Of a stretch of DNA of 64,000 nucleotides, positions 2,972 to 54,382 are shown piece after piece. Made by a program: the position numbers and the translations under genes. How positions within the stretch are numbered: the first letter of the stretch is position 1; every line of letters begins with the position of its first letter. Source of the DNA: Chiloscyllium plagiosum. Lineage: Eukaryota. The stretch spans positions 9,673,700 through 9,737,699 of the forward strand of contig NC_057754.1 in the NCBI RefSeq assembly GCF_004010195.1. Reading direction: 5' to 3'. The notes under the pieces are model-generated. The model had not been told where the DNA came from. It worked only from the letters and a program-made list of their open reading frames with translations, and did not search any database.

Positions 2972-4932
2972 TAAGGGAATATCAAGAGGTTCTTCATCCT
3001 CAAAGCTATTCAGGAGGCGAGAGAGAGGTGGGGAAAACTGTCCCAACTCCAGGAAAGTATGCAGAACCTGCTCCTGCTGCAGACAATGGGGGTCGATGTC
3101 ACGGAGGACCTCAAGGAGGTGAAGGTCCAGCAAGCCTCGCTCTTAGCCTCAGAGGCCTCCAAGATAATCTTCCAGTCCAGGGTCTGCTCACGTTTTTCTT
3201 CCAGAAAGAGCTCCGTGCTCAGTAGCCTGAAGGAAGAAGATAGCTTGGTAACGTCATCTCAGGCTGACACCATGAGGATCAGCAAATTCTTCAATGCCAG
3301 TCTGTCTGACTCGAAGCCAACTGACAGCGTGGCCTCCCAGTCATTCCTGTCCTCTATCACGGAGGTCTTAGATGACAGAACACGGGAGAGGCTGGACCAG
3401 CCACTATCTCTGGACAAGCTGACCAAGGCCCTCGAGTCCTTCGAAAAGAATAAAACTCCCGGAAGCGACGGCTTACCGGTCGAGCTCTATTCTGTTCTAT
3501 GGGACTTGCTTGGCCAGGACCTGTTGGAGACGTATGTCAGTATGCTTCGGGCAGGTACCATGAGCGAATCCATGATGAAAGGCATCATCACCTTCATCTA
3601 CAAGCAGAAGGGGGACAGGGAGGAAATCTGAAATTGGAGACCAATCTCACTATTAAATGCAGATTACAAAATCTTGGCAAAGGTCAACACCAACCGGGTC
3701 AGGTCAGCTTTGGGATCGGTGATCCATCCTGACCAAACCTGTGCTGTGCCGGGCAGGAAGATCGCTGAGAGTCTCGCACTCCTCAGGGATACGATTGCCT
3801 ACAGGCAGGACAGGGGGTTGGACACCTGCCACATCAGCCTGGACCATGGAAAGCCTTTGACAGGATATTACACACGTACATGAGAGATGTCCTCTCCTAA
3901 ATGGGCTTTCGGGAGGGAATCTGTAATTGGATCCGACTGCTCTACACCAACAGTGTCAGTGCAGTCTTAATCAATGAGTGGGAATCAGATAGCTTCCCAG
4001 TCAGATCTGGAGTCAGGCAGGGCTGCCCTCTCTCTCCCGCCTTGTTTGTGTGCTGCATAGAGCCATTTGCCAAGTCCATCAGGAAGGATGTGAGCCTGAG
4101 ATGCGTGATTATTCCTGGCAGCGGGGGCCTACAGGTTAAGGCCTCCCTGTACATATAGTGTCCTTGACACCCTTCAGGAAAAGGAGAGGGCGGATCCTGT
4201 CAAGCGGTTCCCTGAGCAGACTGTCAAAGTCATTTGGCAGAATGCCTCATCGCCAGAACTTCCAAACAAAGACATGAGCCTGTGAGATCCTTTATGCAGG
4301 CCTGGACTCTCTGCCGCACCACACACAGCCCTCGAAGCGGCTGTGGAGGGGACAAGACTGTCACATGCCTCTTTCTGGAATGTGCCTACGCATAGGAAGT
4401 CTGGAGACGAATGCAGTGGTGTTTGTCAAAGTTTCGTCTCGAGCAGCTCCGTGACACGGGACTCCGTGCTCTACGGTCTGTGCCCCGGGACACACACCAA
4501 GACGAACATCAACTGTGCCTGGAGGATCATCAACTCGGTCAAAGACGCTCTTTGGTCTGTATAAAACCTATTGATCTTCCAGCTGAAGGAGCTGACCCCG
4601 ACTGAGTGTTGCGGACTGGCACATTCCAAGGTCCAGGACTATGTGTTGAGGGACGTGCTGATGCTTGGGGCAGCTGCCGCCAAGGCGCGGTGGGGAAAGA
4701 CCACCGTGTAAGGTCTGCCTGCCTAAGAAGAACAGGGGGCCCACTCAGAAATAGGGCCCCGCTGATACCTCAGCTAAATATCTTGATGGTCAATGTATAG
4801 ACTTGTACATACGAATGATTAATTCCGATCTCTATATGTAAAGAAATGCAATGTGTGCATAAGAATGGCACAACCAATTGTATAGATATCAAAATAATTT
4901 TATGAATAAAATATTATTGAAATTTAATAAAA
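2972..4932 (+). mobile_element. Tx1-clade LINE copy 1, 5'-truncated, internally deleted
   Basis: Closely matches 7077-9896; KTPGSDGLP and GVRQGCPLSP RT motifs; jumps at ~4155 from SLY(MDD) to the region matching ~9107; own 3'UTR with AATAAA. Confidence 0.92.
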
Positions 4933-7900
4933 TCTACTGCCTGCAGGATTTCCCCAGTCTGGGCTATTTTGATGTGACCTTCAGGAGTGTGAAGCAGGGC
5001 GAGCAGCTCCTGAAGGTTTTCAAGGAGAAGGAAGAGGAGTCACTGTTCTCCATCTTGTCTGTGGTCCTGTTGTGTGTGCTCCCAGCACAGAGGAGTTGGG
5101 TTGTCATCATCCATATGTACAACCCCCATGTCCCAGCAGCTGATGTCCTGACCTTTCTGGGATGGTAAGTACAGGTCGAAGGAGACAGCAACTGATGTGG
5201 TCGACCCTTTCAGAATCCGGACCAGCAAGTGGCTGGTCGCGGTGGATGCCAGCAGGAACATCCTCCACCCACCCTCCAGCTTCGCAATCCGAGGGAGCAG
5301 AGGTTACCTGACTTACACAGGGCAGCCGAAAGTGTGCCGAACCTGCGGGAGGTCAGGCCACATGGCGGCGGATCTTCAGGAACTGTAAGCAGGAGGGTCA
5401 CCTGACCAAGAACTGCAAAGAGGCGAAGAACTGTAACCTGTGTGGAGAGACGGGCCACATGTACAAGGCCTGCCCAAGACGAGGGGGGCAGCCACTTACG
5501 CGCAGATGGCCGGAGGTGGCAAAGGTGAGCCATGGACCCCCAAAGACCAGCAAGGTCCAACCAGACAGCAGGGAAATGGAGTCTGGGGGTACCTAGAAGG
5601 AAGGACAGGGTGGAGCGGAGCAGACGGCAGCCAGCGGAGAGGTACACCAGTCGGCCCAAGCTCCAGCGGGACGGATGGAGGCAATGGAGGAGGAGGTAAC
5701 CAAGGAGGTAAGGGAGTGGATACCTGTGACAAACAGGAAAAGGAAAATCTGCCAGGTCCCCAAAGCCTCCCAGCAAAGGGGGAAACAGCAGCTGCACGAG
5801 GAGGATACAAACAGCTCTTCAGATGGTGAAGGTGGGTGCAAGGAGGGTCGTCACCTTAAGAAGAGGCAGAGCATTGAGGGGAGAAAGGAGGGTAGCACCC
5901 TCCAACCAGGAAGCGAAGCACCCTCTGAGGGGGCTGGTAAAGGCAACCCCCCCAACCACTGAGAACCAGGAGATACCCACTACACCACAGCTCCAGGTAA
6001 CTGGGAACCGCGAACCTTTGGCAGCCCCACTGTCAGACACAGAACTGGATTGTGCGGACCCTGGTCCCGACCTGCTGACACCAGAGCGGGGAAATGACCC
6101 CCAGCGAGGAGCTGGACAGCTACCTCAGCTCTGTGAGGGTCCAGCAATTCGCCTTCACTATGGGGATGCAGACAGCTGCCCCAGAGACAGGACCATTGAC
6201 AAACGGACAGTGATAACTTTGTAAACTGTAAAATGGGCGTTAAAATTGCAAGGATTAAGATGCGTAGCGTTAAATCTTCTACGTGATGTGTTTCTACATT
6301 GGCCTTCCTAGCCAGCGTTAAAGCTGATGTCCCGTTTCTGCAGGAGTGTGGGATACCGCACCTGAGCAGTTACAGGAGGTGGTCGAGCTTGTGGGCCCAT
6401 GGGCCGTCAGTTTGGTCGGGGGGGCAATGATAACCACTCCTCCGGCCTAGGTATCCTGCTGTGAGGAGGCAGCTTCACCATCTCCAAGGTTAAGGAGGTG
6501 GTGGGCGGGCGCCTCCTCATCACCGACGTCATGTACAGGAATGCTCCCCTGAGACTGATTAATGTGTACGCCCCAGTGGGTCAGAGGGAACGTCTGGCCA
6601 TCCTGCAGCAGCTTCCACTGTTGCTGGCTACATCCAGGCCGGTCATTCTGTATCATTGATGCAGATGGACGATCCGGCGGGGGGGACAGTAAACTGGACG
6701 CCACATCCAGAGTTCTGATGGAAACTGTCAAAAATGCCAAGCTGCATGACATCTTCAGCACCCCTGCAGACGGAGCGCAGAGTAGATACACCTGGTCATG
6801 GGCAGACAGGTCTATCCGCTCAAGGATAGATTACCTGTTTGTGTCCCAAACGCTCTCGGTCAGATCCACCGACGTCAAGCCGGTGTTCTTCTCCGACCAC
6901 TGCCTCCTGCTGGCCAACTGTCACCTACAGGACGAGCAGCGGGCTGCTAAGGGAACGTGGAAGCTGAACACAAAGCTGTTGACCCTGGGAAACATTGAGG
7001 AGCTCAAGAGGGACTACGCAGGTTGGAGAACCATGAAGCCCCTCTTTGAGTCTCCAGCGGACTAGTAGGAAACGGTTAAAGGGAACATCAAGAGGTTCTT
7101 CATCCTCAAAGGTGTTCAGGAGGCGAGAGAGAGGCAGGGAAAACTGTCCTAACTCCAGGAAAGTATGCAGAACCTGCTCCTGCTGCAGACGATGGGGGTG
7201 GATGTCATGGAGAACCTCCAGGAGGTGAAGGGCCAGCACGCCTCGCTCTTTGCCTCAGAGGCCTCCAAGATAATCTTCCGGTCCAGGGTCCGCTCGGTGG
7301 AGCAGGACGAGATGTGCTCACGTTTCTTCTTCCAGAAGGTGCACAAGGAGAACTCCGCGCTCAGCAGCCTGAAGGAAAAAGATGTGTTGTTAACGTCATC
7401 TCAGACTGACATCATGAGGATTAGCAAATCCTTCTATGCCAGTCTGTATGACTCGAAGCCAACTGACAGCGCGGCCTCCCAGTTGTTCCTGTCCTCTATC
7501 ACGGAGGTCTTAGACATCAGAACACGGGAGAGGCTAAACCAGCTGCTATCTCTGGAGGAGCTGACCAAAGCCTTCGAAAAGAATAGAACTCCCAAAAACA
7601 ACGGCTTACCAGTCGAGTCCATTTCTGCTGTGTGGGACTTGATTGGCCAGGACCTGCTGGAGGTGTATGTCAGTATGCTTCTGGCAGGTACCATGAGCGA
7701 ATCCATGAGGAAAGGCATCATCACCCTCATCTACAAGCAGAAGGGGGACAGGGAGGAAATTAGAAATTGGCAACCAATCTCGCTGCTAACTGTAGATTAC
7801 AGAATCTTGTCAAAGGTCATCGCCAACTGGGTCAGGTCAGCTTTGGGATTGGTGATCCATCCTGACCAAACCTGCGCTGTACTGGGCAGGAAGATCGCTG

Positions 7901-9896
7901 AGAGTCTCGCACTCCTCAGGGATACGATCGTCTACGTGCAGGACAGGGGGCTGGACACCTGCCTCATCAGCCTGGACCAGGAGAAAGCCTTTGACAGGAT
8001 ATGTCCTCTCCTAAATGGGCTTTGGGGAGGGAATCTGTAATTGGATCCGACTGCTCTACACCAATATTGTCAGTGCAGTCTCAATCAATGGGTGAGAATC
8101 AGAAAGCTTTCCAATCAGATCTGGAGTCAGGCAGGGCTGCCCTCTCTCTCCTGCCTTGTTTGTGTGCTGCATAGAGCCATTTGCCGAGCCCATCAGGAAC
8201 GATGTGAGCCTGAGTGGGGTGACTATTCCTGGCAGCTGGGGCCTGCAGGTTAAGGCCTCCCTGTACATGGATGACGTCGCCGTTTTCTGCTCGGATCCGC
8301 TGTCCATGCGCAGACTCATGTGCATATGTGACCAGTTCGAACGGGCCTCGGGGGCCAAGGTAAACCGAGGCAAGAGCGAGGCCATGCTCTTTGGGAATTG
8401 GGCTGACCAATCCTCCATCCCCTTCACCATCAGGACTGACCACCTGAAGGTGCTGGGTATTTGGTTCGGAGGGGCTGGGGCATGCGCTAAGTCTAGGGAG
8501 GAGTGTATCAGTAAAGTGAGGCAGAAACTGGGCAGTTGGAAGCAACGGTCACTCTCCATCACGTGAAAAAACCTGGTCATCAGGTGTGAGGCACTGTCAT
8601 TGCTATTATACATGGCACAGGTCTGGCCTATTCCCAGAACCTGTGCTGCTGCAGTCACCCGGGCCATCTTACATTTTATGTGGAGATCAAAGATGGACCG
8701 GGTCCAAAGGGACTCGATGTACAAAGCTCTGTGCAATGTGTGAGGCACTGTCATTGCTGTTATACGTGGCACAGGTCTGGCCTATTCCCAGAACCTGTGC
8801 CGTCGCAGTCACTCGGGCCATCTTACATTTTATGTGGAGATCAAAGATGGACTGGGTCCAAAGGGACTCGATGTACAAAGCTCTGTGCAATGGCCATCAA
8901 GCTGTGCGTGGATCCCTGGTATGCAAACACCAAGTGTCACTATGTACTGAGGTTCTACCTGTCCCCGGTGTTGCGAAGGATGGGCCTGGCCTCGCTGCCG
9001 CGGAACGCTCCAAGTAGTTGGACTGTTCCATATCACCTGTCCTTCGTGGAGAAGTTTATGAAGAAAAACACCTTTGACCACAAATCCATCAGGAAGTGGT
9101 CAGCACGTAGTGTCCTTGAGACCCTTCGGGAAAAGGAGAGGGCGGATCCTATCGAGCGGTTCCCTGAGCAGACTGTCAAAGCCATTTGGCAGAATGCCTC
9201 ATCACCAGAACTTGCCAACAAGCACCAAGACATGGCTTGGCTGGTGGTGAGAAGGGCTCTGCCTGTGAGATCCTTTATGCAGGCCCGGACTCTCTGTCGC
9301 TCCGCACGCTGCCCTCGAAGCGGCTGTGGAGGGGATGAGACTGTCACACACCTCCTTCTGGAATGTGCCTACGCAAATGAAGTCTGGAGACGAATGCAGT
9401 GGTGTTTGTCGAAGTTAGTCCCGAGCAGCTCCATGACACTGGACTCCGTGCTCTACGGCCTGTTCCCTGGGACGCACACCGAGCCGAACATCAACTGTGC
9501 CTGCAGGATCATCAACTCGGTCAAAGACTCTCTTTGGTCTGCCCAAAACCTGTTGATCTTCCAGCTGAAGGAGTTGACCCCAACTGAGTGTTGCAGAATG
9601 GCACATTCCAAGTTCCAGGACTACGTGTTGAGGAACACGCTGAAGCTCGGGGCAGCTGCCGCTAAGGCGCGGTGGGGAAAGACGACTGTGTAAGGTCTGC
9701 CTGCTTAAGAACAGGGGGCCCACTCAGAAATCGGGCTCCGCTGACAAGTCAGCTGAACACCTGGATGGTTAACGTACAGACTTGTACATACAAATGACTC
9801 AGTCTGATCTCTGTATGTAAAGATGTGCAATGGCATCACCCACTGTACAGATTTCAAAAGAGTTTTATGAATAAAGTATATGTTTGGAATTAAAAG
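4933..9896 (+). mobile_element. Tx1-clade LINE copy 2, near full length (ORF1 with CCHC knuckles, ORF2 APE-RT-Zn), disrupted
   Basis: ORF1 remnants CRTCGRSGH, CNLCGETGHMYKAC; ORF2 from ATG 6233 to stop 9693 with SRIDYLFV/SDH (APE endonuclease), DQEKAFD, YMDD and CPRSGC..ETVTHLLLEC; several stops and frameshifts; 12-bp TSD AATTGTATCTGA at 2960-2971 and 9897-9908 flanks both copies together. Confidence 0.95.
8584..8891. repeat. 154-bp tandem duplication in Tx1 ORF2
   Basis: 8584-8737 repeated at 8738-8891. Confidence 0.95.
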
Positions 9897-11336: not shown

Positions 11337-12206
11337 TTATTTATGAACTCGCTGGTGTCTAACCAAGGTGGATGACTTAGTAAATCCCATTCCACACTCA
11401 AAGCAGCTGAATGGCCTCTCCCCAGTGTGAACTCGCTTATGCTCCAGTCGACTGGATGAAGTTGCGAATCCCTTTCCACACAAGGAGCAGGAGTACGGCT
11501 TCTCCTGAGTGTGTACTCGCTGGTGTCTCAGCAGGCTGCAAGACTGAGTAAACGTGTTCCCACACTGCAAGCAGGTGAATGGTCTCTCCCCAGTGTGAAC
11601 TCGCTGGTGTCTCAGCAAGCTGAATGACTGAGTGAAACCCTTCCCACAATCGGAGCAGGTGAATGGCTTCTCAGCGCTGTGAACCTGCTGGTGTTTCTGC
11701 AGGTTGGGGAACTGAGCGAATCCTTTCCCACACTCAGAGCAGATGAACGGTCTCTCCCCAGTGTGAACTCGCTGGTGTACAGTGAGGTGAGATGATCGTC
11801 TGAACCCAGACCCACACTGAGAGCACCTGAAAGGTCTGTCATCAATGTGAACACCTTGATGGCGAATCAGTTCCCCAGAGCTTTTATAGCACTTCCCACA
11901 GTCTGGACATTTGAAAGGTCTCTCGTCAGTGTGAACTCTCTGGTGTGTCAGTAGGTTGGATGACAGAGTGAATCCCTTGCCACACTCTGGGCAGGTAAAT
12001 GGCCTCTCTCCAGTGTGACTGCGTCGATGAATTTCCAACTGAGATGGGGATCTGTATCCCTTCCCACAGTCTTCGCATTTCCATGGTTTCTTCCCAGTGT
12101 GACTGCACTTGTGTCTCGACAGGCCAGACGATTGACTGAAGCCTTGTCCGCACGCACGACACATGTATCGTTTCTCCTCACTGAGAACAGTGCTTTTACC
12201 TTCCAT
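11337..12206 (-). CDS. Tandem C2H2 zinc-finger protein A (10 fingers, no KRAB/SCAN/BTB)
   Basis: Open frame from ATG 12206 (MEGKSTV) with 10 C-x2-C-x12-H-x3-H fingers and TGERP-type linkers; likely acceptor tttcccAG at 12315-12316; AATAAA on the minus strand at ~11213. Confidence 0.93.
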
Positions 12207-12839
12207 GTTCACAGTCCAATGTTATTCAGGTGGGACAAATTGGACAATTCCATCAGATCGAGATGTGATTTTGGGTTTCAGTTTTCCGATTTCAAATCCT
12301 CCTGTTCTAATTCCCTGGGAAATTGATTTGAAACAGAAAAAAAGGGAATGAGAGAAATCCCAAACAAATGCAGGTTATGAACTTGATCTGGATGAATCTA
12401 GTAACTTATGGGGCTGGCATGAGTAAACTATAAACCATATGAACCTCAAGACTGTCATAAAAATCCAACTGGCTCACTACTGACCTTCAGGGAATGGATA
12501 CTAGCCACACTGCCTTGGCTTACACATGGCTCTGGTCTCTACATAAGTCGAAAGAGACCGAGGTGTTCCACACAGCTACAACGTGACCAGGACTTTGACA
12601 GAAAATCCCAAACAACCTCCATCCCTGAGAAACACTACAGCAGCAGGCAGATGTGAACTCCATCAGCTACAAGTTCCTCTCCACACACTTCCTGACTTGG
12701 CCGAAGTGCAGAAAGAATGAGAAGAAATCTCCATTAGAAAGACTGAAGCTACTATTTCAGTCTCTGCTACAAAGGCCAGTTCTGAATACACCCTCCAAGC
12801 ATCTGAGGCTGAACTGAATTGTCAAAGTCATGCTGAAAT

Positions 12840-21930: not shown

Positions 21931-22797
21931 CCACGAAGTGTGGAGAGGACAGCATTTATGCCCGTGAAGGCTGAAACTCACGTGAGGTCAGTCTGAGTCG
22001 TTGGCCATCACTGACAAATGTGGCTGTGAAAGCCAGTTTTGGCAAACGCCAGCAGTGAAATAGAAAGCAACGAAGATTTACACTGTGATAAAAAAAAAAC
22101 AGAATTCCTGTCGGAGGGAAGAGCACAATTTCTTCAGGATGGGGGCCTCAAACTGGTCTTTGTCATGGGTTCTGCCTTCAGTCAATATTGTGTTACAAGT
22201 AACTGAACTCAGCAAATGTAATCACTATCAATGATGATTCATGAAGTTTGTATTGGTGTTATTGTAAAATATTTCACTATTCTGTTTCAAGTCCCCTGAC
22301 AATTTAGTTTCATATTGGAGTACTGTGTACTCACTGTAACACACTGTGTATGTCAGTAAGAATTGTCAACCCAAATCAATCAAGACTTTCGAATAAGTGA
22401 TGTTCATCTGTGGAACCTTTCAGACATTGAATTGTAGATTTTACACCAAAGATCCATTTAGGATTGAAGTAACATTTCACAGTTATATTGTGAATGAATT
22501 CCTGTCGAGAGTTCTTGAATTAGGCGAAAGATCACAGATACAAGTATTAATAAAGAATACTGCATGTCTAAAACTTCAGCAACATCTCCAGAATATTAAA
22601 TTCCAGGCAATTATATAGCTGCTAATATCAGCAGAAATGAACTAAACCTTTTTGTGTCACTATTCCCGGGTGTGATTAACAACAGCACCCAATCACCCAA
22701 TTATCGCAAATCGCTTCCTGAGCCGGTAAATGGCATCTCTCCGGTTTGATGGTATTAGCCCACAGCAGATTTAGCAGATTTACTGCTGAAACTCTGC

Positions 22798-23838
22798 TCA
22801 GGATGAAGTGCAGCTGAATGGTTTCTCCTTCGTGTGAACTCGGTGGTGTGACTGGAGGCCAAATAAGCGAGCAAATCCCCTCCCACACACAGGGCAGGTG
22901 AACGGTTTCTCTCCGGTGTGAACACGCTGGTGCCTGACCAGATCGAAGGACTGAGCAAATTTCTTAGCGCACACAGTGCAGGTGAACGGTCTCTCCCCGG
23001 TGTGAATCCGTTGATGTACAGTGAGCTTGGATGAACTGCTGAAGCTTTTCCCACACTCGGGGCAGCTGAATGGCCTCTCGCCGGTGTGAATTCTCTGGTG
23101 TGCCATGAGGCTGGACGAATGCTTGAACCTCTTCCCGCAGGAATCGCAGCTGAATGGATTCTCCTGGGTGTGGATGCGCTGGTGTGACTGGAGGCTGAAT
23201 AACCGAGTGAATCCCCTTCCACACACGGGGCAGGTGAACGGTCTCTCCCCCGTGTGAATTTGCTGGTGCCTCACCAGATCAAAGGACTGAGCAAACCTCT
23301 TCCCGCACGTGGGGCAGGTGAATGGCCTTTCCCCGGTGTGAGTGCGCTGATGGGCAGCGAGGGTGGAGGAATGCCTGAAGCTTTTCCCGCAGGAAGTGCA
23401 GCTGAACAGGTTCTCCTCGGTGTGCACTCGGTGGTGTGACTGGAGGCCAAATAAGCGAGCAAACCCCTTCCCGCAGACAGGGCAGGTGAACGGTTTCTCT
23501 CCGGTATGAACCCGCCGATGCCTGACCAGATCGAAGGACTGAGTGAATCCTTTCCTGCACACGGAGCAGGTGAACGGCCTCTCGCCGGTGTGAATCCGCT
23601 GGTGTGCAGTGAGGGTGGAAGAGTTGTTGAATTTCTTACCACAGTAAATGCAGTTGAAAGGCCTCTCCTCAGTGTGAACCCTCTGGTGTGACATCAGAGA
23701 GGTTGTTTGAGTAAATCCCTTCCCACATACGGAACAAACAAATGGCTTCTCCCCAGTGTGACTGCGTCGATGGCTTTCCAGCCGGCAGGAATAAGTAAAT
23801 CCTTTCCCACAATCCTCACATTTCCATGGCTTCTCCAT
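22798..23838 (-). CDS. Tandem C2H2 zinc-finger protein B (12 fingers plus a truncated 13th)
   Basis: ATG at 23838 (MEKPWKC), in-frame TGA upstream, 12 canonical fingers; acceptor ttttctAG at 24027-28. Confidence 0.93.
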   Translation of the reverse strand: MEKPWKCEDCGKGFTYSCRLESHRRSHTGEKPFVCSVCGKGFTQTTSLMSHQRVHTEERPFNCIYCGKKFNNSSTLTAHQRIHTGERPFTCSVCRKGFTQSFDLVRHRRVHTGEKPFTCPVCGKGFARLFGLQSHHRVHTEENLFSCTSCGKSFRHSSTLAAHQRTHTGERPFTCPTCGKRFAQSFDLVRHQQIHTGERPFTCPVCGRGFTRLFSLQSHQRIHTQENPFSCDSCGKRFKHSSSLMAHQRIHTGERPFSCPECGKSFSSSSKLTVHQRIHTGERPFTCTVCAKKFAQSFDLVRHQRVHTGEKPFTCPVCGRGFARLFGLQSHHRVHTKEKPFSCTSS

Positions 23839-24430
23839 GGTTCCAGTGTTTCGGTGTCTCTCCTGGTTGGACAATCAGATGAAGCCCCAACCATGCACAC
23901 AATTCGTGGAATTTCTCTCCTCGCTATGAGTGTTGAGATTTATTTCAAACTGTATCCAGTCTGGGTGAATCAAATGACTCTGTTAATGTTTAAGGCGTTT
24001 CTCATCTGTGAATCTTTCCCAATGTCCTAGAAAAGGAATTTACAGACGTTATCACTGTCAGTAAAACAACAGAAATTCAGATGAAACAATTCCCTTGTCT
24101 CTGAAGCAATTTTTCTTCTCCTGTTCCCCCAAAGCTGGAAATTCCCAGATCAGCATAGCTGCCACCGCCCCCCTGTTGGAATTCAAACCCCTCACATCAT
24201 GGAGCACAGATAAGGTGAACAGCCAAGGCCATTTCCCTGGGGTGGGGGAGTCCTGAACTAGAGGGCATAGGTTTAAGATGAGAGGGGAAAGATTTAAATG
24301 GGACCCCAAAGGGGCAACCTTTTCACACAGAGGGTGGTGTGTATATGGAACGAGCTGACAGAGAAAATGGTAGAGCCTGGTACAATTACAACATTTAAAG
24401 GACATTTGGACAGGTGTATGGATAGGAAAT

Positions 24431-32959: not shown

Positions 32960-33648
32960 TCTCTGCAGCTTACTGGTTACTGTGTACTCATCTCCCAGCT
33001 GCTTCTGCTGCTCTGAGATAAGTGCCCTGTAAAATCTAGGCCCGAATCCACACAATGGTAGATATACAGGCTTACCAGTTACTGTGTTCTTCCCCACCTC
33101 CCAGCTGCTGCTGCTGCTCCAGGATAGGTGTCCTGTAAAGACTAGGCCCGAATCCGCACCACACTACATTTATAGCCTTATCAGTTAATATGTTCCTCCC
33201 AGCTGCTGTTGGTCCATCCTAAGTGCCCTGTAAAGACTAGGCCCGAATCCACACAGTGCTAGATTTTACAGGCCTATTAGTTACTGTGTCTCTACCTCTC
33301 GGCTGCTGCTGCTGCCCTGAGATAAGTGCCCTGTAAAGACTAGGCCTGAAACCACACCGTGCTACATTGATAGCCTTACCAGTTAATATGTCCTTCCCTG
33401 CCTCCCAACTGCTGTTGCTCCAAGCTGAGTGCCCTGTAAAGACTGGGCCCAAATCCACACAGTGCTAGATTTATAGGCTTACTAGTTACTGTGTCTCTAC
33501 CTCCCGGCTGCTGCTGCTGTCCTGAGCTAAGTGCCCTGTAAAGACTAGGCCTGAATCTGCACCGCATTGCATTTATAGCCTGACTGGTTAATATGTCCCT
33601 CCCTGCTTCCCAGCTGCTGTTGCTCCAAGCTAAGTGCCCTGTAAAGGC
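32960..33648. repeat. ~103-bp tandem repeat, about 6.5 units, alternating A/B subtypes
   Basis: GTGCCCTGTAAAGACTAGGCC starts at 33022, 33128, 33223, 33326, 33429, 33532, 33634. Confidence 0.9.
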
Positions 33649-33649
33649 T

Positions 33650-35820
33650 ATTTCTAAATTTCTCTCATCTCTGTTCTGAAGTGTCTTCCCTTTGCTCTGA
33701 GGCTGTGCCATCGGGTCCTAGTCTCGCCTACAAGCGGAAGCATCTTTTTCACTTCCACTTGAGCCAGGCCTCTCACTATTCTTTTAGTTTTCAATGAAGT
33801 GCCCACTCCACCTCACCCAACATGACTAAACTCCTTTCTGTACAGACCCAGATTCCTCAACTGCACCTTATACGACAAGCCCCTCATTGCTGGAATCATT
33901 CTTATGTACCTCGTCTGGAACCCCTCCAAGGCCAGCACATCCTTCCCTAGATACAGGGCTCAAAACTGCTCAGAATATTCCAAATACAGTCTGACTAGAG
34001 ACTCATATAGCCTCAGCAGTACATCCCTGCTCTTGTATTCTAGCCCTCTAAAAATTAATTGCATTTCTAACTGCCAACTAAACCTGTGTGTTAATCTTAA
34101 GATAATCATGAATGAGGACTCCTAATTCTCTTTGTACTTCAGATTTCCAAGCCTTTCTCCACTTAGAAAATAGTCTATGCCTCTATCCTTCCCACTAAAC
34201 CTCACACTTGCCCATATTTCACCTGCCACTTCTTTGCCCACTCTACAGTCTGTCCAAGTCTTTTTGCAGTCCCCCGCTTCCTCAACGCTACTTGTATCTC
34301 CATCTATCTTTGTGTCACCTGCAAACTTCGCAACAATGCCCTCAGTTCCTTCGTCTAGATCATTAATGTAAAACATGCATAATTATGGTCCAACGCGACT
34401 CCCTGCAGAACTTCACTAGTCATAGTTGCCAACCTGGAAAAAAAACCTTTATTCCCACTCTCTGCCTTCTGCCACTCAGCCAATCCTCTATCCACACCAA
34501 TACCTTGCTTTATTTCACAGCATCCTGCCTTGCCAAGACCTTCTGGAGAAACAAATCAATGACGTTCATTAACTTTCCTTTGTCTAATTTGCTCGTCACC
34601 TCCTGAAAGAATTCGAAAAGATTTGTTGTTTTATCAGGTGCTATCAAGTAGTCTGCAACCTCATCCGTAAAAATAGATTCTTAAATCTCCCCAATGACTG
34701 AGGTCAGGCTAACGAGCCTATAATCTCTCGTCTTTTGACCCCTCCCTTCTTAAAGTGATGTTATATTAGTCATTTCCCAATCACTGGGATCCTCCCTGGC
34801 TCCAATGCCTGGACAATATCCTCAGCTATCTCCTTCAAACTCGAGGGACTAATCCATCCAGTTTTATCCACCTTCAGACCTTTCAGCTTCCCCATCACCT
34901 TCTATTTAATGATGGCCACTACACATACTTCTGCTCCCTAACTCTCTTGAAGTTCTGATGTGCTACTAGTATCTTCCACCATGAAGACTGATGCAAAGTA
35001 TCTTTTCAGTTCCTCAGCCATTTCTTTCTTTCCCCATTACTACTTCTACAGTTTCATTTTCCAGTGGTTCAATGTCCTCTCTTGCCTGTCTTACCTTTTA
35101 TAGATCCAAAAAAGTCCTTGCAATCTTCTTTTATATTACTAGCTGGCTCATCCTCACATTTCATCTTGTTCCCTGTTATTGCTTTTTTAGTCGCCCTCTG
35201 CTGGTTTTGAAAGGTTTCCCAATCCTTTGGCTTCCCAGTAAATGTCACCATATTGCATTCTTTCTCTTTTATGCTGTTCCTGACTTCCCTGATCAGCCAT
35301 GGTTGCCTTGTCCTCTCCTCAGTATGTTTCTTCTTGCTCGGGATAAATCTCTGCTGTGCATTCTGAACTACCCCCAGAAACCCCTGCCATTGCTGCTCCA
35401 TCATCTTCCCTCCTCGGCTCCTTTTCCAATCAATTCTGGCCAGTTCCTCCTTCATATCATTGGAGTTATCTTTACTTAATTGTAGTACTGTTATACCTGA
35501 TTCCAGTTTCTCCCCCTCAAACTGCAGGGCGAATGCTACCATCCTGTGGTCATAGGGGTTCCTTCACAAAATTTAACGCTCACAAGTTCTATGCCTCCTA
35601 ACCCTTTGTCACTTCTTGCTATTGATTTAAATTCATTTCTTACTAACAAGGGAACTTCACCCCCTCTACCCATCCTTTTGAATATTTAGTTCTGAATCTG
35701 AACCCCTGGCAGTCACAGCTCGCTGATGCCCATCCTATTGTACCTGCCAATTTCAATCTGTGCAACACCTTGTTTCATTTACTGCATGTATTTAAGTACA
35801 ACTCAGTTCTGCTTTGACCT
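33650..35820 (-). mobile_element. CR1 LINE, decayed
   Basis: YINDLDEGTEGIVAKFAGDTK; QQWQGFL..AQQRFIP..QPWLIRE tether region. Confidence 0.88.
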
Positions 35821-43023: not shown

Positions 43024-43734
43024 TCACTGTAGTGACTTGTGAACTCGCTGGTGTCTCAGCAATGTGGATGAATCAATGAAACTCTTTCCACACTTAGAGC
43101 AGGTAAATGCTCTCTCCCCACTATGTACTCGGCGGTGTGTCAGGAGGTTGGATGAATTAGTGAAGCCCTTCCCACACTGAGTGCAGGTGAATGGTTTCTC
43201 CCCATTGTGGGTGCGCTGGTGGGTTAGCAGGGTGGACGATTGAGTGAATCTCTTTCCACACTCAAAGCAGGTGAACGGCCTCTCTCCAGTGTGAATTCGC
43301 TGATGGGCAGTGAGCTCGGATGATCGCCTGAACCCAGTCCCACAACAAGAGCATGTAAATGGTCTCTCATCAGTGTGAACAAGTTGATGGGACGTCAGTT
43401 CCCAAGAACTTTTATAGCATTTCCCACAGTCTTTGCATTTGAAAGGTCTCTCCCCGGTGTGAACACGCTGGTGTTTCAGCAGGATTGATGACTGAGTGAA
43501 TCCCTTCCCACATTCAGGGCAGGTGAACGGTCTCTCTCCGGTGTGACTGCGCCGATGAATTTCCAACTCAAATGGATAATTGAATCCCTTCTCACAGTCT
43601 CCACATTTCCAGCGTTTCTCCCCAGTGTGGCTGCGCTTATGTTTTGACAGGCCAGATGACTGGCTGAAGCCTCGTCCACACACAGGACACGTGTACGGTT
43701 TCTCTACACTGTGAGCAGTGCTTTTACCTTCCAT
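43024..43734 (-). CDS. Tandem C2H2 zinc-finger protein C (8 fingers), paralogue of A
   Basis: ATG 43734 (MEGKSTAH), 8 canonical fingers, ends HKSLQ*; fingers 1-5 colinear with ZNF-A. Confidence 0.93.
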
Positions 43735-44072
43735 GTTCAAAAATCGGATAATGTTCAGGTTGTGACGATTTGGGTTTCAGTTTTTCCACTGCAGTTCCAC
43801 CTTTCTAACAGAGAACTAGGTTTAAAACAGCATTAGGTGAGGGACAAACAACTAAAAAAAACACAGGCAGAATCTGAAACTGAGCTGAATGAATCTTGTC
43901 ATTCATGGGACTAACACTAGGGTAAAGTGAGCATCAAAGCTACTAGATTGTGATAACGCAGCTGGTTCACTGATGTTTTTCAGGGAACCCAACATCTGGT
44001 GTGGACCTATATAAGAACCTGCCCTTTATGAGAGGAGAGAGTGTGAGGGAAAGAATCAGGCAGGGGGGAGGG

Positions 44073-49589: not shown

Positions 49590-50962
49590 ACAAAAGCAAA
49601 TAGTGTTATGGAGAATCCAAAGGGTTTTTTTCAAATACATGAAGGACAAAAGGGTAACATGGGAGAGAATAGGGCTCCTTAAAGATCAGCAAGGCTGCCT
49701 AATGTGCAGAACTGCAGGAGATTGGGGAGATGCTGAACAAATATTTTGTGTCAGTTCTTACTATGCAGAAGGAATGGAAGCTAGCGAACTCGGGAAGATA
49801 AATAGCAATATTTTGAAAAGTGCCCAAAATACAAACGAGGAGGTGCTGGATGGTTCAAAATACATAAGGATGGATAAGTTCCCAGGACTGGATCAGGTGT
49901 ACCCTCGAACCTTATGGAAAGTTAGGGCCTCTGGCTGAGATATTTGTATCATCGATAGCAATGGATGAGGTGCCAGAAGAACGGAGGTCGTGTAATGTGG
50001 TGCCACTATTTAAGAAAGGTGGTATGGAAAAGCCAGGGAACTAAAGACTGCTGAGCCTGATATCATTGGTGGGCATGTTGTTGGAGCTGTTTCGGAGGGT
50101 CAGGATTTACATGCATTTGGAAAGGCAAGGGCTGATTAGGAATAGTCAGCATGGCTTTGAGTGTGGGAAATCATGCCTCATTGATCTGACTGAAGTTTTT
50201 GAAGTGACAAAGAGGGCTGATGAAGGCAGCGCCTTGAACATTGTCTAAATAAATTTCATTAAGGTGTATGACAAGGTTCCGCATGGTAGACTGGTTAACA
50301 AGGTTAGGTCACACGGAATTAAAGGGAGAACTAGCCATTTGGATACAAAATTAGCTAAAAGGTAGGAGACAGAGAGTGGTGGTGGAGGGCTGCTTTTTGG
50401 ATTGGAGGCCTGTGACCAGCAGTGTGCCGCAAGCATCAGTGCTGGGTCCACTGCTTTTTGTCATTTATATAAATGATTTGGATATGAATGTAGGAGTTAT
50501 GGTTGGTAAGTTTGCAGAAGACATCAAAATTGATAGAATAGTGATAACCAAGAAGGTTACCTCAGAGTACAATGGGACCTTGATCAGACGGGCAGAGGAG
50601 TGGCAGATGTTGTTTCATTTAGATAAACGTGAGCTGCTACATTTTGATCAGGCAAATCAGGGCAGGACATGCACTTAGTGGCAAGGTCTGGGGAGTGCAG
50701 GTTCATAGTTCCTTGAAAGTGGCTTTGCAGGTAGATAGGGTAATGAAGAAGTCATTTGGTATGCTTGCTTTTATTGGTCAGTGCATTTCAGTATAGGAGT
50801 TGGGAGGTCATGTTGCAGCTGTACAGGACATTGGTTTGGCTAATTTTGGAATACTGCATTCAGCTTTGGTCTCCCTGCTATAGGAAGGATGTTGTGAAAT
50901 TTGAAAGTGTTCAGAAAAGATTTACAAAGATGTTGCCACAGTTGGACGGTTTGAGCTATAGC
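49590..50962 (+). mobile_element. CR1 LINE interrupted by ERV; 3' end resumes at ~53442-53605
   Basis: [20 protein letters not shown]; breaks at gagctatag. Confidence 0.88.
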
Positions 50963-51432
50963 TGAGAACATGTATAGAGTATAAGCAGGTTGGGAAAGAG
51001 TCAAGTTCTGAGTTTTGTAAAACAAGAGGTTCAGCTGGGCACGGCCCAGATCAGATACGAACTTACAGTTAACAATGGGGCACTGGAGACAAGGGTTAAC
51101 AAGGTGGAAAAGCATTCATTATGTACAGCCATTTAACAATATGGAAGCATTCAGTATGTAACGTCAGTTTAACAAGGTGATAAGTATTCATTATGTGAAG
51201 CCAGTTAAGATTAATTGTGTAATAGCAAATGACGTGATCTTTGCTATTGACACTCGCTGATTGTAACAATCACCCATTCAATCTGTATGTTGCCTTATCT
51301 GGATGCTCCTTCCTGTAAAATGACTATATAGTTCCAGTGTACATGGGTGATTGTTCTCTCTCCCTCCAGGGCCCAGAATAAAGGTGAAGGAGGTAAAACT
51401 TCCGGGGGGGGGGGGGGGGGGATGGGATGACA
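50963..51432 (+). mobile_element. ERV 5' LTR
   Basis: TG...CA ends, TATATA at ~51325, AATAAA at ~51377, immediately followed by a PBS. Confidence 0.8.
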
Positions 51433-51436
51433 ATAT

Positions 51437-51454
51437 TGGAGTAGTCAGCAGGAT
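51437..51454 (+). promoter_or_regulatory. Primer-binding site, tRNA-Ser type
   Basis: TGGAGTAGTCAGCAGGAT matches 16/18 to TGGCGTAGTCGGCAGGAT, the complement of the vertebrate tRNA-Ser(AGA) 3' end as recalled. Confidence 0.8.
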
Positions 51455-51635
51455 CCAAACAGACAGTTATGGTCAGGGTGGCTAGGCCCACAAGGGAAGA
51501 TTTTAAACCTTGGTACCTCTTGCTGTTCCTGTGCGCTGGAGACGGTTCCCTTGCTCCATCATTCTCTATTCTATGGATTCCTCGAATGGTAATAAGTTCA
51601 ATCGAGAGACAAAATTTCGCAAGTGCACTGGCAGG

Positions 51636-52320
51636 CAGAGGTTCGAGTCCTCTGTGCTGCTTTGGGGGAAGGGGGGTATGATTGAGGTTCCGGTCCTCTG
51701 CACGGTATTGAGATTCAAGTCCCCTGGGGTGGGTGTAATTGAGGTTCGAGTCCCCTGGGGTGGGTGTGATTGAGGTTCGAGTCCCCTGGGGTGGGTGTGA
51801 TTGAGGTTCGAGTCCTCTGCGCAGTACTGGTGTTTGATTTCCCTGGGGTGGGTGTAATTGAGGTTAGAGTCCTCTGCACGGTACTGGGGTTTGATTCCCC
51901 TGGGGTGGCTATAATTGAAGTTTGAGCCCCCAGGGTGGGTAATTGAGGGTTGAGTCCTCTGCACAGTATGGGGTGCGAGTCCCCTGGGGTGGCTGTAATT
52001 GAGGGTCAAGTCCTCTGCGCGGTACTGGGTTTTGATTTCCCCTGGGGTGGTTAATGAGGGTAGAGTCCTCTGAGCAGTACTGGGGTTCGAGTCCCCTGGG
52101 GTAGGTAATTGAGTTTCGAGTCTCCGCTCTGTGGTAAGGTTCGAGCCCTCTGCACGGCACTGGGGTTCAAGTCCCCCAGGGGTGGGTGTGATTGACGGTT
52201 GTGTCCTCTGCGCGGTACTTGGTTTTGCTCTCACCTGGGGTGGGTGTAATTTAGGTTTGAGTCCCTCGCTCTGTGGTAAGGTTCGAGCCCTCTGCATTTG
52301 AGCGAGGTTCGAGCCCCCGT
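51636..52320 (+). repeat. ~27-31-bp minisatellite in ERV leader, each unit carrying a GGTTCGAGTCC-like motif
   Basis: More than 20 variants of GGTTCGAGTCC alternating with CCTGGGGTGGGTGTAATT or TCTGCGCAGTACT spacers. Confidence 0.92.
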
Positions 52321-53221
52321 GGGGAGTAAAGCGAGAAAGGGGTTAAAGTCCCCTAGTGGTGAAATTTGAGGCTCTGAGAGTCTTTGTTCTGGGGGCAAGA
52401 GTGAGGCTTGGATTGGTGCACCATGTGGTCCGTTGTGAGGGCTCTGGTTTTATAAATGTAATTTTAATGAGAGAATGCAAAACAAAATGAGAAATGCTGA
52501 AATTAAGGCTGTACTAATACCTGGGTTGAAAAGGAAAGTTTCAATGTGAATTTTGCCATGCTGTGTGTGTGTGATGTTTAAAAATTTTGGTTTGTTAAAA
52601 GCCTGGTTCAGAAAATCCTTTTAAGTAATTGTTTTGCCTTGTTTGAATTAGGATCTCAATTGAATGTGTTTTGTGGGTTATATAATGGGGCAGATTTTGT
52701 TTTTACATTAAAATTGTACAATTTTATGTCCTTTTTTAAAATAATCAAACTTGCAACCTTTAAAACAATTTGACTGAGTGCCTTGAGCCACTGATGTGTT
52801 TGAAATTCTACAATCACTGTTTAAAAAGGAACAGTTGGGTCAGTGGTCATGCTTTAGCCAGATGAGAGTACAGTGTATTGTATTAAAATATCTTCAATGA
52901 CTAAAGCACAGGAAACATTTTGTTTTCTTGCTGTTCCAGACTTTTGAAATACTTATCCTGACAGCTTTCACATTAGCCAAGTATCAATTTGTTAAAGGAA
53001 AATTAGTTTTGAATAACCCTAGAGAATTTGATTTTAGGACCATTGATTGTTGTTTATAAATGACTGACTTGTTTAGGCAGGACAATTTACAAGTTTATGG
53101 ATTGTATAAAACTTGATGATGTCATAACTAGTGAACAGAGTAACAGATTTCAAGAATTCAAAGAATGATGAAATAGGCAGACACAATTTAGCGTAGTTAA
53201 AACCACCTTAGCAAGGAAGGA

Positions 53222-53330
53222 ATGAGAGAGGAAATGCAAAGATACTTTCAGCAGCTAACATTGTCTCTAGAGTTTCTCCATTCGCAGGTAAAACATGCCT
53301 TCTGCCCACCGCCCACCCTTCCACAGCCTG
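53222..53330 (+). mobile_element. Retroviral integrase C-terminal remnant
   Basis: MQRYFQQLTLSLEFLHSQVKHA then, frame-shifted, PPFHSL resembles the Y..L...L..LH.QV..A.P....H.L segment of class I ERV integrases; short, recognised by eye. Confidence 0.55.
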
Positions 53331-53359
53331 ATCCAATGGATTCAATCAGCTCCCCAGTC

Positions 53360-53442
53360 ATGGGCACAAAAAGTGAAGAAATTAACAACAATGAAGAAGA
53401 GGCTTTTTGTCAGTGGCCTTCCTATGGACATTAAACCATGTG
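53360..53442 (+). pseudogene. rbpms2: Fragment of RBPMS/RBPMS2 (Hermes)-like coding sequence, frameshifted and truncated
   Basis: ATG..MGTKSEEINNNEEE, 1 nt, then LFVSGLPMDIKP matches the RBPMS-family N-terminus EEEVRTLFVSGLPxDIKPRE with an 8-nt loss; paralogue identity (RBPMS vs RBPMS2) uncertain. Confidence 0.8.
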
Positions 53443-54382
53443 CAATTACAACATTTAAAAGGCATCCAGAGGGTCATACGAATATGAAGGGCTTAGATAT
53501 GAGCCAAATACTAGCAATGGGACTAGGTTCATTTAGGATGTCTAGTCGGCATGGACAAGTTGGATCAAAGGGGCTGATTCTCTGCTGTCCATCTCTATGA
53601 CCCTGTGGGAATATATGAATTCGGTGCCACAATGGGCATGACCCTGCATTGTCTGATCCATCATTCGGTAAGATTGCAGCTGATCTGACTGTAACCTCAA
53701 CTTCACATTCCCAGCTACTCTCCGTAACATTTCACTGCTTTGCTTATCAAAAGTCCATCTACCGCTACCTTAAAAATATTCAATTAATCGGCTTGCACTT
53801 CCATGTTTGATTCATGCATGGGATGTGGGTGCCACTGGTTCAGGCTGCTTTTGATTTGGAAGACCACTTGCAGTTGGCGGTGTTCGCATGCGTCTGCATC
53901 CATGGCGTTTTTAGGTTGCAGATGTTGCTGGTTTGGAAGGTTCTGTAAAAAGAATTTTGGTGAGATACTGTAGTGCATCTTGTAGATGGCAGTCATTATC
54001 ACCACCATGTGCAAAGTTGCAGGGAGTGAACTTTGAAGATGGTGCATAGGTTGCTAATTGAGTGGACTGTGTTTTACTGGGTGATGCTTGTAGGTGATTA
54101 TTAGCACTGGTGATAGGCATTTAAGAGTCCTACAGCACGGAGACAGGCCCTTTGGCCCAAACTGGTCCATGCTGACCAAAATGTCCATCCACGCTAACCC
54201 CATTTACCTGCATTTGGCCCATATTCATCTAAACCTTTCCTATCCATGGATTTGTCCAAATGCGTTTTGAATGTTGTTAATGTACCTGCCTCAACCACTT
54301 CCACTGGCAGCTCATTCCACCCTCTGTTTAAAAAAAGTTGCCCCTCAGGTTCCTTTTTATTCTTTCCCCTCTCACCTTAAAC

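Follow-up and report, generated by a model that had tools for sequence, protein, structure and literature searches.

A class I endogenous retrovirus derivative carrying a captured, spliced RBPMS2 mRNA in Chiloscyllium plagiosum

Results

Organization of the element

The window, the whole stretch of DNA analysed, comprised 64,000 nt of Chiloscyllium plagiosum (contig NC_057754.1, positions 9,673,700 to 9,737,699, forward strand). At 50963–53442, a LINE, presumably a CR1, was interrupted by the 5' two-thirds of a non-autonomous class I endogenous retrovirus (ERV) derivative, with the following features.

50701..50962, continuing further left, + strand: 3' part of the host LINE, the insertion target of the element; 81–88% identity to other copies of the same LINE
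50963..51432, + strand: 5' LTR of type B, TG...CA; paired LTRs found in 14 other copies
51437..51454, + strand: primer-binding site (PBS), tRNA-Ser(AGA); 16 of 18 nt match the host tRNA gene end plus CCA
51455..51650, + strand: leader, containing a palindrome and splice-donor-like motif at 51485–51499; putative function
51652..52300, + strand: tandem-repeat leader of 31/57-nt units; length differs between copies
52300..52922, + strand: AT-rich non-viral interior, source partly traced; 52381–52477 weakly matches G000:C32:1,452,704-1,452,800, a LINE-like piece in antisense
52923..53199, + strand: likely second host capture; match to G000:C13:18,169,689-18,168,871 (77–79% identity, E 1e-49)
53201..53333, + strand: integrase remnant, an N-terminal piece joined to the post-core linker; 53255–53287 contains a branch point, a pyrimidine tract and an AG, the likely env splice acceptor
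53334..53442, + strand: captured spliced RBPMS2 mRNA, with 26 nt of 5' UTR, ATG at 53360, exon 1 and the start of exon 2; frameshift at 53402/53403; ends abruptly at 53442
53443..53607, + strand: host LINE continuing after the break; a later deletion took the remaining RBPMS2 sequence, env tail and 3' LTR together with about 225–260 nt of LINE

Much of this layout had been proposed in an initial annotation, of which the LTR with TG..CA ends, the tRNA-Ser PBS, the repeat leader and the deletion junction back into the host LINE with loss of the 3' LTR were all confirmed. The interior, described there as AT-rich and non-coding, was AT-rich but not featureless, as 52923–53199 matched a host locus near MSL2. 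When compared with three other copies of the LINE, about 225–260 nt were absent after 53442, and the break is a later deletion that does not characterize the family. A contig from a related run spanned the break with 29 nt on one side, short of the 31 nt required. In the three frames of the window copy, a Pfam search found nothing retroviral, and a protein search with the fusion region returned one match, from the same species.

The integrase-like ORF from 53222 was in frame with the RBPMS2 ATG at 53360, as initially reported. However, this in-frame fusion is a late by-product of one deletion: the integrase and RBPMS2 of the older form are kept apart by a spacer and by an in-frame stop within the host 5' UTR. 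The two peptide pieces reported to follow the ATG on one strand, EEE and LFVSGLPMDIKP, were both present, but in different frames because of a short frameshifting deletion at 53402/53403.

Elsewhere in the window, three minus-strand C2H2 zinc-finger arrays with an 84-nt period were located at 11337–12221, 22755–23888 and 43024–43776, and the element therefore sits in a zinc-finger gene cluster. The regions 2973–4729 and 7079–9711 formed a LINE-like tandem, a duplication spaced roughly 4.1 kb with 88–93% identity and with RVT_1 and zf-RVT frames, and an array of about seven 103-nt units occupied 32961–33677. Two solo-type LTR-B insertions (L150 on C29 and L151 on C7) occupied the same position of the same LINE family, about 23 nt from the site used in the window; their shared position reflects a duplication or a carried insertion.

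Identity of the captured mRNA

The host RBPMS2 gene was located at G000:C40:25,026,164-25,128,988, with seven coding exons over 103 kb, six of which matched protein P0096 without mismatch, and a non-coding exon 8 beginning at 25,131,898. Window positions 53334–53401 matched host exon 1 (87%, E 2e-17) and positions 53403–53442 matched exon 2 (95%, E 2e-11). These exons are separated by 36 kb in the host gene, and their joining within 109 nt of the window supports the mRNA origin first suggested from the protein reading. The initial assignment to RBPMS/RBPMS2 was right as to the family, since the host gene matched exon by exon, and is narrowed to RBPMS2, not RBPMS; the contrary outcome that it had allowed for, a lack of any match to the shark RBPMS family, was not observed. 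In the window copy the host-derived part does not start at the ATG but 26 nt 5' of it.

In total, 87 distinct RBPMS2-bearing copies were examined, 61 of type B, the type of the window copy, and 26 of type A, which has exon 5. A better-preserved copy matched RBPMS and RBPMS2 structures (E 1e-28) and shark RBPMS2 proteins. Across the family the cargo was RBPMS2 mRNA that began in the 5' UTR, ended in exon 8 and lacked all seven introns; one exon junction was present in the window copy. Exons 1 and 2 were joined without interruption in all 26 A copies and in 56 of the 61 B copies. The cargo started about 75 nt 5' of the ATG and ended near nt 208 of exon 8; nt 190 or a later position was reached by 25 of the 26 A copies and 56 of the 61 B copies. 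The captured part of exon 8 is limited to its first 210 nt, and the first AATAAA of this exon lies 2 kb in.

Family size, forms and deletion series

Three independent queries gave 583, 634 and 638 first-look candidates (about 600 interior matches) and an LTR query gave 2019, none of these being exact copy numbers. Twenty-nine other LTR-B loci were taken from the best 40 of the 2019 candidates: 19 were without visible family interior, 6 were 3' LTRs preceded by RBPMS2, and 4 were 5' LTRs with the same leader. The initial annotation had named, as a finding that would speak against it, LTR-family copies without the RBPMS segment; all six sampled 3' LTRs with a visible interior, among these best 40 of 2019, carried RBPMS2. 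Moreover, 18 of 19 integrase-remnant loci ran on into RBPMS2, and the proposal that a non-autonomous LTR family had transduced a host mRNA holds for a multi-copy family with one shared junction. Among 29 leader loci from the best 40 of 231 candidates, 25 were followed by the same interior, and the A-lineage gag/pol queries matched none. The 29 LTR loci (best 40 of 2019) and 29 leader loci (best 40 of 231) included no autonomous element with LTR-B.

Five forms were distinguished. The rarer and older form A0 kept the integrase core and the whole RBPMS2 CDS. The integrase core was lost in A1, and A2 had lost the core together with a stretch from exon 6 into exon 8, so that the RBPMS2 C-terminus was gone. 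Form B0 had the spacer and host codons about 74–158 deleted and an AT-rich insert gained, with an A-like LTR and leader. Form B, with a new LTR, PBS and leader, accounted for most copies, including that of the window, and is the product of nested deletions, the likely second capture of DNA downstream of MSL2, and an LTR swap. The deletions in this series showed 2–3 nt of shared sequence. The median K2P divergence of LTR pairs was 0.142 for A (n=15) compared with 0.111 for B (n=14; P=0.006; 51 loci tried, 29 LTR pairs). The nesting of the deletions and the difference in LTR-pair ages suggest the order A0, A1, B0, B.

Whole-CDS forms were a minority: about 33 of 150 scored rows reached the middle, and the C-terminus was kept in 9 of 25 analysed A copies. 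A FastTree tree was built from 77 of 85 copies, 8 being omitted for gaps, after the window copy and one other had been left out for poor alignment. The tree was star-like, with 93% of its length terminal, and B was weakly grouped (largest pure-B clade 42 of 55, support 0.85). In one locus (L079:2196-3281, oriented), three tandem partial 5' LTR units were arranged head to tail.

Parent element and capture junctions

Related decayed elements without RBPMS2 shared the RNase H, integrase and env tail of the family, and several also shared the leader and LTR-A. In one of these relatives an RT/RNase H frame matched PDB entries 4hkq, 5dmq and 4mh8 (E 4e-38), the chains of which we take to be MLV/XMRV. 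Another contained a gamma-type TM and matched envelope glycoproteins (best E 3e-9; syncytin-2, E 8e-5). The parent has pol and a gamma-type env. When 21 frames were scanned, the integrase core rve was found in copy L059 only (E 1.6e-7; 32.0 bits against a cut-off of 32.6); this less deleted copy keeps the core at the same place, which upholds the integrase-like nature first ascribed to the remnant. A Pfam search of nine decayed parent pieces gave no matches.

At the left junction a displaced RT piece passed into the host 5' UTR through 6 shared nt, and at the right junction exon 8 passed into the env TM tail through 8 shared nt (both read by eye). Neither a poly(A) tail nor a target duplication was present at the cargo ends. 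The cargo sits between two LTRs in the env position, env being reduced to the TM tail, and the window copy is without the 3' LTR. For the element itself, 4-nt target-site duplications were exact in 4 of 18 pairs with called ends, with 5 more at 3 of 4 nt (best of up to six boundary choices), and exact 4-nt duplications occurred in 3 of 30 LTR loci, ends being called for about two-thirds.

The RBPMS2 segment is one capture and not a stray pseudogene, because the spliced RBPMS2 sequence found across the family extends from the 5' UTR to within exon 8 and is joined to pol and env remnants via short shared sequence. The independent processed pseudogene landing in an ERV, offered initially as the alternative, is excluded by the one junction shared across the multi-copy family. 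A variant in which a LINE-made pseudogene landed in one ERV copy that then multiplied would also yield shared junctions, and LINEs are abundant in the region. It is nevertheless extremely unlikely, as the cargo ends within exon 8 and replaces most of env, lacks a poly(A) tail or target duplication at its ends, and shares sequence with the viral template at both of them. The junctions, with shared nucleotides and no poly(A), bear the signature described by Tan et al. (PMC5131818). In the capture by the retrovirus, the abundant RBPMS2 mRNA of oocytes may have been co-packaged and hence caught, with template switching during reverse transcription at each junction, and the derivative would then have spread with the proteins of a helper virus. 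This helper dependence is what we infer, since no LTR-B helper was found.

Splice signals in the integrase remnant

The branch point, pyrimidine tract and AG in the integrase remnant (window 53255–53287) point to a reason for its survival. The acceptor AG was retained in 19 of 24 A copies, 50 of 60 B copies and 9 of 10 parents, and parent-to-copy identity was 0.76 before the AG and 0.40 after it. The public model P0122 diverged from the genomic translation exactly at this AG. The palindrome with the donor-like motif was the sole leader segment common to A and B; it was matched in 17 of 29 B leaders (among the best 40 of 231) and was also present in parents. The donor regular expression located its region in 10 of 29 leaders (best 40 of 231), 9 being intact; in the window copy the motif at 51485–51499 was not intact.

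In MLV the env acceptor is located in pol (PMC5778647, PMC3185771). Together with the kept AG, the drop of identity across it, the departure of P0122 at the same point and the shared donor-like motif, this suggests that RBPMS2 occupied the env position as the ORF of a spliced RNA, and the integrase remnant likely survives as the env splice acceptor. The conservation of the acceptor in parents could be explained otherwise, because the same sequence also encodes integrase there. In an RNA run of unknown tissue of origin, depth was low and scattered, mostly below 10 apart from an inserted common repeat, and no joints were listed; no read showed the predicted splice from leader donor to acceptor. 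A second RNA run gave no coverage of the element, and the two runs together are as compatible with expression as with its absence. The parts kept throughout, namely the LTRs, PBS, leader donor motif, integrase-remnant acceptor, env tail and PPT, would be the selected cis signals of a natural splicing retroviral vector.

A likely second capture downstream of MSL2

A query with the AT-rich interior matched at least 40 loci at 81–87% with no outlier source, and the source appeared only with a rarer sub-segment. With a B0-specific query, all 23 candidates of which were scored, G000:C13:18,170,574-18,168,864 was found to hold both insert ends without viral flank. The boundaries of the homology with this C13 locus coincide with the sites at which the pol remnant is broken by the insert. 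Between short direct repeats, the locus also contains about 530 nt not present in the copies. It lies in sense to MSL2, identified by its RING (E 4e-29) and CXC (E 3e-19) domains, 5.3–7.0 kb 3' of the MSL2 stop codon (6–7 kb for the part matching the window), in a repeat-poor stretch with two AATAAA signals upstream. The insert ends therefore likely represent a second host capture, of MSL2-downstream DNA; the direction would be from host to virus, and the locus may belong to the MSL2 3' UTR.

The middle 1.2 kb of the insert was absent from the C13 locus, and part of it matched a 710-nt piece at G000:C32:1,452,428-1,453,143, whose similarity to the central part of the AT-rich insert in copy L202 was 88%. 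The antisense frame of this piece appeared LINE-like by eye, and it has 80 nt of overlap with the MSL2-downstream locus.

Fate of the captured RBPMS2

Nonsynonymous and synonymous changes (N:S) were counted against the host CDS at non-CpG sites in 60 B and 25 A copies, with a neutral expectation of 2.2–2.8. The counts were 111:42 for B singletons, 108:42 for shared B changes, 225:74 for A singletons and 119:47 for shared A changes, and the ratio to neutral was 1.04–1.25 in the four classes. The B stem gave 7:1, which was not significant (p 0.45). Copies with open frames had N/S of 3.6 compared with 3.3 in B, no different, and 2.1 compared with 3.0 in A (3 copies). The cargo changes are neutral in N/S, both private and shared, the tests on shared changes being weak because the tree is star-like. 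The frame was unbroken to RRM helix 2 in 9 of 83 copies without a clear sign of constraint. The comparison of dN/dS and intact RRM among copies that had been recommended initially gave neutral N/S and few intact frames. In one copy (L072, G000:C6:403,389 region) the 5' viral part was lost and a 200-codon RBPMS2 frame was kept; its N:S was 33:11, which is neutral.

Form B is without host codons about 74–158 and hence without RRM strand 4, and a stop occurred at host codon 161 in 23 of 45 covered B copies. The residues of strand 4 and the loop that contact RNA (PMC4783296) are missing from form B. In zebrafish, germline localisation of Rbpms2 is reported to require an intact RNA-binding domain (PMC6049948). 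Given the loss of strand 4, the stop and the neutral N/S, the earlier suggestion of germline access aided by the captured protein is not supported.

A narrower possibility is that full-length RBPMS2, expressed from an env-type spliced RNA, served the founder virus as a functional accessory gene that aided germline entry and was later dropped by parasitic derivatives. The A founder apparently encoded unchanged RBPMS2 (3 N and 15 S relative to the host, with two of these N changes on the host side), and the whole CDS with its own ATG lay 3' of the likely env acceptor. In zebrafish, Rbpms2 functions in the Balbiani body (PMC6049948), and crocodilian captures are reported to be under purifying selection (PMC4299795). 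However, the whole-CDS forms are a minority, the shared A changes are neutral, ATGs in the A spacer precede that of RBPMS2, and the most successful form has dropped the strand and loop needed for RNA binding and localisation (PMC4783296, PMC6049948). This role is considered very unlikely.

It is distinctly unlikely, too, that the cargo acted as RNA, with the kept RBPMS2 or MSL2-downstream sequence routing or stabilising element RNA in oocytes and so raising copy number. Exons 1–4 and nt 47–208 of exon 8 survive in all lineages, net A–B divergence in exon 8 is low (0.010), and zebrafish rbpms2a transcripts are reported to be enriched in the Balbiani body (PMC6049948). The net divergence of the coding parts is similarly low, however, at 0.011–0.017, and the retained parts are not CAC-rich, with 4 CAC in 210 nt compared with 11 in the 255 nt deleted in B. 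The capture also stopped far short of the first exon-8 AATAAA. Hitch-hiking explains the retained parts, because they border on the acceptor and on the env tail/PPT. An RNA-routing role, if demonstrated, would be a new route for a retroelement into the germline. A scenario uniting the two roles, in which a germ-plasm gene caught in shark oocytes gave a germline advantage, first as wild-type RBPMS2 from an env-type spliced RNA and then as cis-acting RBPMS2 and MSL2-downstream RNA routing to the Balbiani body, and caused an expansion to some 600 copies, is judged unlikely.

Overall reading and comparison with known captures

With good confidence, window 50963–53442 is read as a truncated, decayed copy of a non-autonomous class I ERV derivative with a spliced host RBPMS2 mRNA in the env position, which likely arose once by template switching in reverse transcription and likely spread with helper-virus proteins, the cargo being likely inert as a protein. 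The family shows the marks of LTR-mediated capture of a host mRNA by a class I ERV and lacks the signs of purifying selection and the intact ORF and domain that would mark a transduced gene as functional.

The captures most like it are CrocERV31-nectin3 and CrocERV29-KIT-ligand (Chong et al. 2014, PMC4299795), in which ERVs of a non-mammalian vertebrate likewise caught and then replicated a whole host mRNA; in CrocERV31, nectin3 replaced env as RBPMS2 did in the shark family. They are reported in 6 and 9 copies compared with roughly 600 here, about a hundredfold difference. Their ORFs are described as intact and under purifying selection, whereas the shark cargo decays neutrally and was progressively deleted, and the shark family, unlike them, made a later likely second capture and an LTR/PBS swap.

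In LTR-mediated retrocopies, such as human FAM8A1 in a HERV and multi-gene chimeras (Tan et al. 2016, PMC5131818), partial mRNA likewise replaces internal ORFs. The reported median microsimilarity at switch points is 6 nt, compared with 6 and 8 nt here, and both systems include several host sources per element and further non-autonomous cycles. Those cases are young, with one to few insertion sites, whereas the shark family is old and has a traceable deletion series. The layout of LTR, PBS, leader donor, pol-derived env acceptor, foreign ORF in the env position, PPT and LTR is also that of splicing gammaretroviral vectors (MFG/LN design) and of MLV env splicing (PMC3185771, PMC5778647); the shark family differs in being natural and decayed, with splicing predicted from motifs only and no cargo function shown.

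ERV capture of host mRNA is already known from other vertebrates, and the shark family is a striking new example rather than a new principle. It is notable for its scale and completeness: the parent ERV, the capture junctions, nested deletions, a likely second capture and an LTR swap are all preserved in one genome, an unusually complete fossil record of retroviral transduction. It also indicates that a cargo-bearing ERV can thrive while wrecking its own cargo, and which cis signals such an element keeps. In a literature search with a scope outside Repbase, most subscription journals and supplements, no publication on an RBPMS2-carrying shark ERV family was found. Such a family was not found in the accessible text of a 2026 review (PMC13297096), and the main text of a bioRxiv retrocopy survey (10.64898/2026.06.26.734816) contained neither 'RBPMS' nor 'shark'; its supplements may list such loci.

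Age and distribution in carpet sharks

A residue found only in whale-shark and bamboo-shark proteins was present in 8 of 8 covered A copies, and a residue changed in the present host was kept in 53 of 57 B and 21 of 24 A copies. The B deletion was carried by the Hemiscyllium model P0002, and contigs from runs under two other organism labels covered the element. Judging from these shared residues, the deletion in P0002 and the contigs, the capture falls within carpet sharks, and form B was likely present before the Chiloscyllium/Hemiscyllium split. A generation spans several years. An absolute date from 7e-10 per generation (PMC10587355), which gave 80–100 million generations, was rejected as too old for this lineage, the carpet-shark split being dated to 181 My (PMC11406177).

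The ERV family accounts for false 'RBPMS2-like' models in shark annotation (P0122, P0123 and P0194) and for the RBPMS2-astacin model P0002. In P0002, a B-type deleted RBPMS2 frame was fused to an astacin protease, a fusion that stems either from an annotation error or from genuine exonisation of the element.
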